A stretch of DNA of 3,460 nt from Escherichia coli (GTDB lineage: Bacteria; Pseudomonadota; Gammaproteobacteria; Enterobacterales; Enterobacteriaceae). Location of the stretch: assembly GCF_003334255.1 (NCBI RefSeq), contig NZ_QOWU01000121.1; one strand, given 5' to 3'. The translations under genes and the position numbers were made by a program. The notes below the pieces were generated by a model. That model was not told the origin of the DNA, did no database searches, and saw only the letters and a program-made list of their open reading frames with translations. Below are positions 1 through 3,460 of this stretch, piece after piece. How positions within the stretch are numbered: the first letter of the stretch is position 1; each line of letters starts with the position of its first letter.

Positions 1-3000
1 ATGAGCGGAAAACCAGCGGCGCGTCAGGGAGATATGACTCAGTATGGCGGTCCCATTGTCCAGGGTTCGGCAGGTGTAAGAATTGGCGCGCCCACCGGCG
101 TGGCGTGCTCGGTGTGTCCGGGCGGGATGACTTCGGGCAACCCGGTAAATCCGCTGCTGGGGGCGAAGGTGCTGCCCGGCGAGACGGACCTTGCGCTGCC
201 CGGCCCGCTGCCGTTCATTCTCTCCCGCACCTACAGCAGCTACCGGACCAGGACACCCGCGCCGGTGGGAGTGTTTGGCCCCGGCTGGAAAGCGCCTTCT
301 GATATCCGCTTACAGCTACGCGATGATGCACTGGTACTCAACGACAACGGCGGGCGGAGCATTCACTTTGAGCCGCTGCTGCCGGGGGAGGCGGTGTACA
401 GCCGCAGCGAGTCAATGTGGCTGGTGCGCGGTGGTAAGGCAGCGCAGCCGGACGGCCACACGCTGGCGCGGCTGTGGGGGGCGCTGCCGCCGGATATCCG
501 GTTAAGCCCGCATCTTTACCTGGCGACCAACAGCGCACAGGGGCCGTGGTGGATACTGGGGTGGTCAGAGCGGGTGCCGGGTGCTGAGGACGTACTGCCA
601 GCGCCGCTGCCGCCGTACCGGGTGCTTACCGGGCTGGCAGACCGTTTCGGGCGGACGCTGACGTACCGGCGTGAGGCCGCAGGCGACCTGGCCGGGGAAA
701 TCACCGGCGTGACGGACGGTGCCGGGCGGGAGTTCCGTCTGGTGCTGACCACGCAGGCGCAGCGTGCGGAAGAGGCCCGCACCTCTTCGCTATCTTCTTC
801 TGACAGTTCCCGCCCTCTCTCAGCCTCAGCGTTCCCCGACACACTGCCCGGTACCGAATACGGCCCCGACAGGGGTATCCGCCTTTCGGCGGTGTGGCTG
901 ATGCACGACCCGGCATACCCGGAGAGCCTGCCCGCTGCGCCACTGGTGCGGTACACGTATACGGAAGCCGGTGAACTGCTGGCGGTATATGACCGCAGCA
1001 ATACGCAGGTGCGCGCTTTCACGTATGACGCGCAGCACCCGGGCCGGATGGTGGCGCACCGTTACGCGGGAAGGCCGGAGATGCGCTACCGCTACGACGA
1101 TACGGGGCGGGTGGTGGAGCAACTGAACCCGGCAGGGTTAAGCTACCGCTATCTTTATGAGCAGGACCGCATCACCGTCACGGACAGCCTGAACCGGCGT
1201 GAGGTGCTGCATACAGAAGGCGGGGCCGGGCTGAAACGGGTGGTGAAAAAAGAACTGGCGGACGGCAGCGTCACGCGCAGCGGGTATGACGCGGCAGGAA
1301 GGCTCACGGCGCAGACGGACGCGGCGGGACGGAGGACAGAGTACGGTCTGAATGTGGTGTCCGGCGATATCACGGACATCACCACACCGGACGGGCGGGA
1401 GACGAAATTTTACTATAACGACGGGAACCAGCTGACGGCGGTGGTGTACCCGGACGGGCTGGAGAGCCGCCGGGAATATGATGAACCGGGCAGGCTGGTA
1501 TCGGAGACATCGCGCAGCGGGGAGACAGTACGCTACCGCTACGATGACGCGCACAGTGAGTTACCGGCGACGACAACGGATGCGACGGGCAGCACCCGGC
1601 AGATGACCTGGAGCCGCTACGGGCAGTTGCTGGCGTTCACCGACTGCTCGGGCTACCAGACCCGTTATGAATACGACCGCTTCGGCCAGATGACGGCGGT
1701 CCACCGCGAGGAAGGCATCAGCCTTTACCGCCGCTATGACAACCGTGGCCGGTTAACCTCGGTGAAAGACGCACAGGGCCGTGAAACGCGGTATGAATAC
1801 AACGCCGCAGGCGACCTGACTGCCGTTATCACCCCGGACGGCAACCGGAGCGAGACACAGTACGATGCGTGGGGAAAGGCGGTCAGCACCACGCAGGGCG
1901 GGCTGACGCGCAGTATGGAGTACGATGCTGCCGGACGTGTCATCAGCCTGACCAACGAGAACGGCAGCCACAGCGTCTTCAGTTACGATGCGCTGGACCG
2001 GCTGGTACAGCAGGGCGGCTTTGACGGGCGGACGCAACGTTATCATTATGACCTGACCGGAAAACTCACACAGAGTGAGGATGAGGGACTTGTCATCCTC
2101 TGGTACTACGATGAATCGGACCGTATCACTCACCGCACGGTGAACGGCGAACCGGCAGAGCAGTGGCAGTATGATGGCCACGGCTGGCTGACAGACATCA
2201 GCCACCTGAGCGAAGGCCACCGTGTTGCCGTCCACTATGGCTATGACGATAAAGGCCGCCTGACCGGCGAATGCCAGACGGTGGAGAACCCGGAGACGGG
2301 GGAACTGCTGTGGCAGCATGAGACGAAACACGCATACAACGAGCAGGGGCTGGCAAACCGCGTCACGCCGGACAGCCTGCCGCCGGTGGAGTGGCTGACG
2401 TATGGCAGCGGTTACCTGGCGGGAATGAAGCTGGGCGGGACGCCGCTGGTCGAGTATACGCGGGACAGGCTGCACCGTGAGACGGTGCGCAGCTTCGGCA
2501 GCATGGCAGGCAGTAATGCCGCATACGAACTGACCAGCACATACACCCCCGCAGGCCAGTTACAGAGCCAGCACCTGAACAGCCTGGTATATGACCGTGA
2601 CTACGGGTGGAGTGACAACGGCGACCTGGTGCGCATCAGCGGCCCGCGACAGACGCGGGAATACGGCTACAGCGCCACGGGCAGGCTGGAGAGTGTGCGC
2701 ACCCTCGCACCAGACCTGGACATCCGCATCCCGTATGCCACGGACCCGGCGGGCAACCGGCTGCCGGACCCGGAGCTGCACCCGGACAGTACACTCACAG
2801 TGTGGCCGGATAACCGCATCGCGGAGGATGCGCACTATGTCTACCGCCACGATGAATACGGCAGGCTGACGGAGAAGACGGACCGCATCCCGGCGGGTGT
2901 GATACGGACGGACGACGAGCGGACCCACCACTACCACTACGACAGCCAGCACCGCCTGGTGTTCTACACGCGGATACAGCATGGCGAGCCACTGGTCGAG

Positions 3001-3460
3001 AGCCGCTACCTCTACGACCCGCTGGGACGGCGAATGGCAAAACGGGTCTGGCGGCGGGAGCGTGACCTGACGGGGTGGATGTCGCTGTCGCGTAAACCGG
3101 AGGTGACGTGGTATGGCTGGGACGGAGACAGGCTGACGACGGTGCAGACTGACACCACACGTATCCAGACGGTATACGAGCCGGGAAGCTTCACGCCGCT
3201 CATCCGGGTCGAGACAGAGAACGGCGAGCGGGAAAAAGCGCAGCGGCGCAGCCTGGCAGAGACGCTCCAGCAGGAAGGGAGTGAGAACGGCCACGGCGTG
3301 GTGTTCCCGGCTGAACTGGTGCGGCTGCTGGACAGGCTGGAGGAAGAAATCCGGGCAGACCGCGTGAGCAGTGAAAGCCGGGCGTGGCTTGCGCAGTGCG
3401 GGCTGACGGTGGAGCAACTGGCCAGACAGGTGGAGCCGGAATACACACCGGCGCGAAAAG
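1..3460 (+). CDS. rhs: Rhs family YD-repeat protein, conserved core region (RhsA/B/C-like); 5' end complete at the ATG at nt 1, 3' end truncated by the window edge
   Basis: Manual translation of frame +1 gives 1153 sense codons with no stop from the ATG at nt 1 to the window end. The N-terminus [42 protein letters not shown] matches what I recall of E. coli Rhs core proteins. Many YD-repeat units are present, for example [13 protein letters not shown] (nt 1084-1122), [13 protein letters not shown] (nt 1282-1320), [14 protein letters not shown] (nt 1723-1764), [14 protein letters not shown] (nt 1909-1950), [14 protein letters not shown] (nt 2230-2271), [16 protein letters not shown] (nt 2833-2880) and [16 protein letters not shown] (nt 3001-3048). 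Codons are GC-rich at third positions. The paralog (rhsA, rhsB or rhsC) cannot be assigned from memory, so the symbol is family-level only. The upstream RBS and promoter are outside the window. Confidence 0.95.

Follow-up and report, generated by a model that had tools for sequence, protein, structure and literature searches.

The 3,460-nt stretch of Escherichia coli DNA analysed here (assembly GCF_003334255.1, contig NZ_QOWU01000121.1; the whole stretch is called the window) very probably encodes residues 1-1153 of a single-chain Rhs core polymorphic toxin, most likely one that a type VI secretion system (T6SS) delivers. It was in E. coli that Rhs elements and their YD repeats were originally reported. 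Published work (PMC3150448, PMC2935791, PMC7216683) already describes the YD repeats of Rhs proteins from E. coli, their PxxxxDPxGL boundary, the core rich in GC and the linkage to vgr genes. The YD-repeat feature that a first-pass annotation of the window had placed at nt 949-3048 is real, was correctly interpreted and is already known. The repeats and their period, the family membership, the predicted hairpin and cocoon fold and the gene neighbourhood were determined directly.

The repeat array and the family of the protein

Frame +1 was free of stop codons across all 1153 codons of the window, with an ATG at nt 1. The gene and its main repeat features are as follows (aa, amino acids; PSSM, position-specific scoring matrix).

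1..3460, + strand: Rhs core gene, codons 1-1153 of 1407, named rhsD by the Prokaryotic Genome Annotation Pipeline (PGAP) and lying at the position of K-12 rhsE; its 3' end is beyond the window
949..3048, + strand (aa 317-1016): the YD-repeat array of the first-pass annotation, main wall of the predicted β-cocoon, with 59 predicted strands and 19-24 units of 21 aa that stand out statistically
1387..2277, + strand (aa 463-759): most regular stretch, 14 consecutive PSSM units at a spacing of 20-24 aa
2278..2640, + strand (aa 760-880): degenerate zone with a hardly discernible YD motif, continuing predicted hairpins and a sequence that aligns with Tse5

All 21 repeat peptides listed initially were recovered, once each and at their noted places, between nt 949 and 3039, the first at nt 949-987 and the last at nt 3004-3039. 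The column consensus over 21 columns was G3-x3-R7-Y8-x-Y10-D11-x2-G14-R15-L16-T17, which is the same as the unit G-x-x-x-R-Y-x-Y-D-x-x-G-R-L read at first by eye and matches the unit cited for E. coli Rhs, YDxxGRL[I/T] (PMC10684867). The period was 21 aa by the Fourier peak of the aromatic indicator (21.0), by autocorrelation (peaks at 21 and 42) and by modal spacing (21), so that the earlier estimate of about 20 residues was right to within one residue. When the protein was compared with residue shuffles, "YD" occurred 18 times versus 4.5 (z 6.7), [YFW]x[YFW][DN] 14 times versus 0.87, and the strict form Y[DN]xx[GDH][RKQWE][LVIM] 12 times versus 0.05 (z ~52). A chance origin of the YD motifs is thus excluded.

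The units were counted with an ungapped 21-column PSSM, the thresholds of which were set from 200 shuffles; this was used instead of a HMMER self-profile of the unit, which gave erratic domain calls on such short repeats. With a family-wise threshold of 5% the matrix found 19 units, and with one that allows about one false match per protein it found 24; this count of 19-24 is a lower bound because an ungapped matrix misses units with insertions or deletions. The initial figure had been at least two dozen, with 21 peptides listed.

The periodicity had been assigned to the protein alone, the DNA copies being too diverged to form a tandem repeat, and the nucleotide-level searches bore this out. 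Tandem Repeats Finder reported 0 tandem repeats in the window at a minimum score of 30, and a direct repeat search of the window returned only short matches of 14-30 nt, probably due to chance. In-register units shared 25% aa identity versus 6.8% for random in-frame segments; at the nucleotide level the corresponding values were 41.5% (maximum 57%) and 29%. A protein-level repeat had therefore been recognised from raw DNA alone, with its unit form, its period and the absence of a DNA repeat all given rightly. The finding has little importance beyond correct annotation, and its value lies in a clean confirmation.

Profile searches identified the family of the protein. The NCBIfam equivalog model RHS_core (NF041261) reached 2535.6 bits, its curated cut-off being 2000, and the alignment laid aa 1-1153 of the window on profile positions 1-1156 of 1261, the last 105 positions falling beyond the window. 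Repeat models from both NCBIfam and Pfam gave significant matches: TIGR01643 (YD_repeat_2x) matched at E 9.6e-48 in 6 stretches, and Pfam RHS_repeat (PF05593) gave 8 matches at E<=1e-3, to which 6 weaker ones with E 0.0018-0.1 are added, together spanning aa 320-900. The strongest of these fell within the most regular stretch, aa 463-759 (e.g., aa 579-615, E 1.1e-11). Among sequences of known structure searched with phmmer, the best match was Tse5, at E 2.2e-100 over aa 48-1073, and the other top matches were Pseudomonas protegens RhsA (7q97), 8qja, Tse15, a Salmonella bongori Rhs protein, RhsP and Photorhabdus Rhs1/Tre23 (7pq5). The best matches were all T6SS Rhs effectors, and teneurins came next (E 1e-9 to 7e-20). 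With an RHS_core score above the cut-off, multiple YD/RHS repeats and a contrast in GC content between core and tip, the window product belongs to the Rhs core family of enterobacteria. The family is very large, since a scan of 1.84 billion representative proteins gave 57,135 relatives at E<=1e-3.

The predicted shell and the domains around the array

An AlphaFold2 model of aa 48-1247 (full-length numbering) was built from an alignment with 47 relatives of 273-1585 aa. The model had a mean predicted local distance difference test score (pLDDT) of 88.2 and a predicted template modelling score (pTM) of 0.81, and it was almost entirely β-hairpin. It contained 88 β-strands, 59 of which lay in aa 317-1016 (~29-30 hairpins), and a shell built from the repeats was present. 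All of the 19 PSSM units mapped to a strand, a 5-residue turn and a second strand, with D-x-x-G-R in the turn; the same strand-turn-strand geometry is described for Tse5 (PMC10684867). In the degenerate zone (aa 760-880) there was no PSSM unit, yet the predicted strands were continuous with a pLDDT of mostly 85-95, so that unit counts based on sequence are too low for structural repeats.

When the model was compared with known structures by Foldseek, the shell of Tse5 (8cp6_B) gave template modelling scores of 0.80 normalised to the query (TMq) and 0.88 normalised to the target (TMt) at 30% identity. The TMq/TMt values were 0.76/0.86 for RhsA (7q97), 0.75/0.88 for 8qja and 0.70/0.79 for 7pq5, with a single score of 0.74 for Tse15; over the seven Rhs cocoon entries other than Tse5 they were 0.64-0.76/0.63-0.88. 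The repeats are thus predicted to fold into a closed β-cocoon. Such an architecture has already been solved for several T6SS Rhs effectors.

The model also bears on the extent of the shell. An array does occupy nt 949-3048, but these bounds did not hold, since the shell-forming repeats extend, in the predicted structure, past them on both sides. The remaining features of the window are given below.

1..141, + strand: PAAR-like N-terminal segment of 47 aa, with weak PAAR matches only
136..369, + strand (aa 46-123): DUF6531, predicted to close the shell at one end as the N-terminal "cork" plug (Pfam PF20148 matched over its whole length, E 2.8e-18)
370..948, + strand (aa 124-316): first part of the predicted shell wall, very degenerate hairpins, with strands in the model and an alignment to Tse5 residues 48-225
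3049..3219, + strand (aa 1017-1073): further predicted shell hairpins past the original end of the array, with strands at model residues 980-1026 (aa 1027-1073)
3220..3429, + strand (aa 1074-1143): charged α-helical insert that interrupts the repeats, with five predicted helices at model residues 1027-1096

Upstream of the array, the DUF6531 region was modelled with a pLDDT of 81-94, and in the structure of Tse5 this domain forms the N-terminal plug (PMC10684867). The first wall part that follows it includes, for example, a hairpin at aa 215-235 (nt 643-705); weak PSSM matches were seen at aa 116 and 215, and Pfam RHS_repeat matched aa 209-243 at E 2.9. Within this part lie a helix (aa 252-265) as well as a low-confidence linker rich in Ser (aa 261-287, nt 781-861). 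The lowest model confidence within the window was at aa 268-287, with a mean pLDDT of 58-69 per 10-residue block, and a second low-confidence loop was found at aa 188-207 (pLDDT 61-66). Downstream of the array, the sequence alignment with Tse5 reaches aa 1073, and the predicted shell resumes beyond the window, after the insert, at aa 1153-1222.

Ahead of the plug, only aa 2-29 (nt 4-87) resembled a PAAR sequence, and of the three PAAR motifs they resembled the last only. The matches were weak (4jiv_D, E 0.022; SalCis10, E 0.022; Pfam PAAR_motif, E 0.27), and NF033420 (T6SS_PAAR_dom) reached E 0.009, far under its cut-off. For a full PAAR domain, weak partial matches (E 0.009-0.27) were all that was obtained. 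In Tse5, the 47-aa N-terminal fragment is called "PAAR-like" and is required for secretion, and it is cleaved off at K47|P48 (PMC10684867). Chain B of the Tse5 structure starts at PVNPMLGSK, which aligned to aa 48 of the window protein, and N47|P48 (nt 139-144) aligned with the N-terminal cleavage site. By analogy, the window protein may be cleaved at N47|P48.

The gene, its locus and its probable mode of action

The window was 100% identical over its 3460 nt to the 5' part of a 4224-nt coding sequence (CDS) annotated "rhs element protein RhsD", which was present in three complete E. coli genomes (NZ_CP060061.1, NZ_CP060083.1 and NZ_CP060057.1). Of 5426 complete E. coli genomes, 3901 (~72%) had related copies, at a median of 6 places per genome having any. 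In strain G6/7, an intact vgrG ends 66 nt upstream of the rhs ATG, and in the identical genome the upstream VgrG matched TIGR03361 with 624 bits; the gene thus shows the vgrG linkage of T6SS PAAR-Rhs effectors. Downstream in G6/7, ydcD overlaps the rhs stop codon and is followed by ISAs1/H-repeat transposase genes, one of them frameshifted. On both sides (ansP-yncG-yncH upstream, ydcD-yncO-H-repeat-pptA downstream), the neighbouring genes correspond to those at K-12 rhsE, so the PGAP name rhsD reflects sequence similarity and not position.

The part of the gene beyond the window was read from the identical genomes. It matched TIGR03696 (Rhs_assc_core) with 88 bits and Pfam RHS (PF03527) at E 3.6e-16. 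Aa 1232-1257 read DPIG-x18-DPMG, aa 1249-1258 read PIQVIDPMGL, and the C-terminal tip (aa 1259-1407) is a 149-aa DUF6973. The identical full-length gene therefore carries the associated core, the protease motif and a variable tip. PADLOC matched no anti-phage defence model to the tip or to YdcD. The GC content was 64.5% in the core, i.e., the window (77% at third codon positions), 40.9% in the tip, 27.3% in ydcD and 43-50% in flanking E. coli genes. A GC-rich core with an AT-rich tip is the classical Rhs composite (PMC2935791), and the pattern here classically marks an Rhs core of horizontal origin with its composite structure.

The predicted structure and the homologues suggest how the protein would work. 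Each 21-aa YD unit would form one β-hairpin with D-x-x-G-R as its tight turn, and the hairpins would stack into one long sheet spiralling into a hollow cocoon. DUF6531 (aa 46-123) would cork one end, and the conserved C-terminal Rhs core domain (aa ~1153-1258) would cork the other. As in Tse5 and RhsA, this C-terminal plug with its DPxG-x18-DPxG motif would be an aspartyl autoprotease that frees the tip within the cocoon, and the variable, AT-rich DUF6973 tip would be cut off and kept inside. The short PAAR-like N-terminus, perhaps cleaved at N47|P48, would stay anchored and mount the cocoon on the VgrG encoded upstream, the VgrG-mounted cocoon would be fired by the T6SS, and ydcD would encode the cognate immunity protein that protects the producer cell. 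The mechanism of autoproteolysis and encapsulation is taken from Tse5 (PMC10684867) and RhsA (PMC8765631), and we infer these two steps as well as T6SS delivery, toxicity and immunity for the window protein. The first-pass annotation had described YD repeats as a shell around a C-terminal toxin, as in Rhs and TcB/TcC proteins. The shell is borne out by the model; the enclosure is drawn from homologues (PMC10684867, PMC8765631), because the toxin domain falls outside the window; and the likeness to TcB/TcC does not amount to membership, as set out in the next section.

Several points weigh against a T6SS-delivered Rhs toxin. The PAAR likeness is weak and covers one of three motifs, which leaves the attachment to VgrG putative. 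The shell is predicted to be closed on the basis of its global TM-scores against closed cocoons. The toxin tip, the protease motif and the immunity gene lie outside the window and are known only from identical genomes. Finally, K-12 retains only a truncated pseudogene at the rhsE locus.

The last point also favours the alternative that survives best, namely that the gene is an Rhs gene by structure but a silent or decaying relic, unexpressed or undeliverable, e.g., in a strain without an active T6SS. The K-12 pseudogene is 5'-truncated, 2049 nt long and without vgrG; nt 2209-3460 of the window match it at 97.4%, and the transposase genes with their frameshifted member stand just downstream of the window gene. 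However, the frame is intact over 1153 of 1153 codons in the window and 1407 of 1407 in the identical genomes, and vgrG upstream and ydcD downstream are intact as well. We regard a relic as improbable, with a small residual chance.

With regard to the DNA itself, the program-made list of open reading frames (ORFs) lacked the frame +1 ORF because it runs past the 3' end of the window. The antisense ORFs (minus strand, 2560-3417, 1753-2475 and 516-1022; 285, 240 and 168 aa) were rejected as genes and are composition artefacts: codon-shuffled versions of the sense ORF had a mean longest antisense run of 297 aa, and 43% of the shuffles equalled or exceeded the observed length. Rfam gave nothing at gathering thresholds on the window. 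The coding strand has a strong purine excess, with an AT skew of up to +0.35. Beyond the window, a small antisense gene, yncO, is annotated inside ydcD in an identical genome.

Comparison with known systems and the helical insert

The Rhs core proteins of E. coli (K-12 RhsA-E with their alleles) share with the window gene the GC-rich core, the AT-rich tip, the small downstream ORF, the H-repeat/ISAs1 neighbours and the YD consensus. Nothing substantive differs, apart from the name rhsD being used at the rhsE position. Architecturally, the nearest system is Tse5 of Pseudomonas aeruginosa (8cp6; PMC10684867), which has the same N-terminal fragment of ~47 aa, the DUF6531 plug, the YD cocoon, the C-terminal aspartyl-protease plug and an encapsulated toxin. 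The two differ in their tips, in that Tse5-CT is a pore former whereas the tip of the window gene is a DUF6973 of unassigned activity, and no equivalent of the Tse5 helical region 873-914 is predicted in the window protein. RhsA of P. protegens (7q97; PMC8765631) and Rhs1/Tre23 of Photorhabdus laumondii (7pq5) have the same single-chain T6SS cocoon with a cork-like N-terminal plug and a C-terminal autoprotease plug, but their N-terminal regions are long (prePAAR, transmembrane domain and full PAAR, ~270-300 aa), whereas the window protein has only ~47 aa before its plug.

YD-repeat shells are also found outside secreted toxins, and the repeats of the window protein might, in line with an older view of Rhs/YD proteins, be displayed at the cell surface, binding carbohydrate or another ligand or acting as an adhesin, instead of forming a container. 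Older literature ties YD repeats to carbohydrate binding (summarised in PMC2935791), and teneurins (6fb3, 8fia), whose YD-repeat shell is alike by sequence and fold, use it as an extracellular scaffold and were present among the structures matched. The TM-scores of the predicted fold, however, were 0.8-0.88 against cocoons that are closed and carry a toxin but only 0.3-0.47 against teneurins. Moreover, an autoprotease motif and a variable tip are present in the full gene, next to which lies a gene of the immunity type, and no signal peptide was seen in the N-terminal sequence when judged by eye. A surface or adhesin role is therefore very improbable. Teneurins themselves are eukaryotic, possess an FN-plug and an NHL domain, hold their toxin-like domain outside the shell and are uncleaved (PMC8765631). 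Membership of the teneurins was rejected for the window protein on the TM-scores given above, its location on a bacterial chromosome and the lack of FN-plug and NHL domains in Pfam.

Hardly any credence is left for the protein being part of an insecticidal ABC toxin complex (TcB/TcC-like), in which the YD shell would dock on a TcA translocator instead of a T6SS spike: Foldseek did match Tc BC structures (E 1e-32 to 1e-15), and Tc BC and T6SS Rhs proteins have the YD-repeat cocoon and aspartyl-protease principle in common (PMC8765631), but the global TM-scores to Tc BC entries were 0.15-0.52 versus 0.64-0.80 for T6SS Rhs effectors, the single-chain product has a DUF6531 cork plug and no β-propeller, the neighbouring gene is vgrG and not tcA, and there was no Tc protein among the phmmer matches to known structures at E<=1e-3. 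Fold score, domain content and vgrG context thus largely refute Tc BC membership. The Tc BC cocoons (TcdB2-TccC3, 4o9x/6h6g; YenBC, 4igl) are YD/RHS β-cocoons like the window protein and enclose an autoproteolytically released toxin, but each consists of two proteins and makes four turns, not three; a β-propeller closes it, and it docks on TcA (PMC8765631). No tc gene context was found here. Collectively, the window protein resembles a Tc BC cocoon in how it works without being one, and it does not belong to the teneurins.

The charged five-helix insert (aa 1074-1143) is the only non-textbook feature of the window in the Rhs toxin that we propose. It comprises 70 aa, 13 of them D/E and 10 K/R, with a helix fraction of 0.66, and it stands just before the C-terminal plug. 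"Helical Region 2" of Tse5 (residues 1031-1062) occupies the same position, and has been proposed to be a Tse5-specific surface protrusion that aids membrane binding (PMC10684867); the insert of the window protein is longer than this region and highly charged. Among relatives, the length of the insert at this site was 18-126 aa. The insert could therefore, although this seems rather unlikely, be a surface module that PAAR-like Rhs effectors have in general and that is tuned by lineage, and not a peculiarity of Tse5. Were this the case, the insert could serve docking to VgrG or to an adaptor, or interaction with the target cell.

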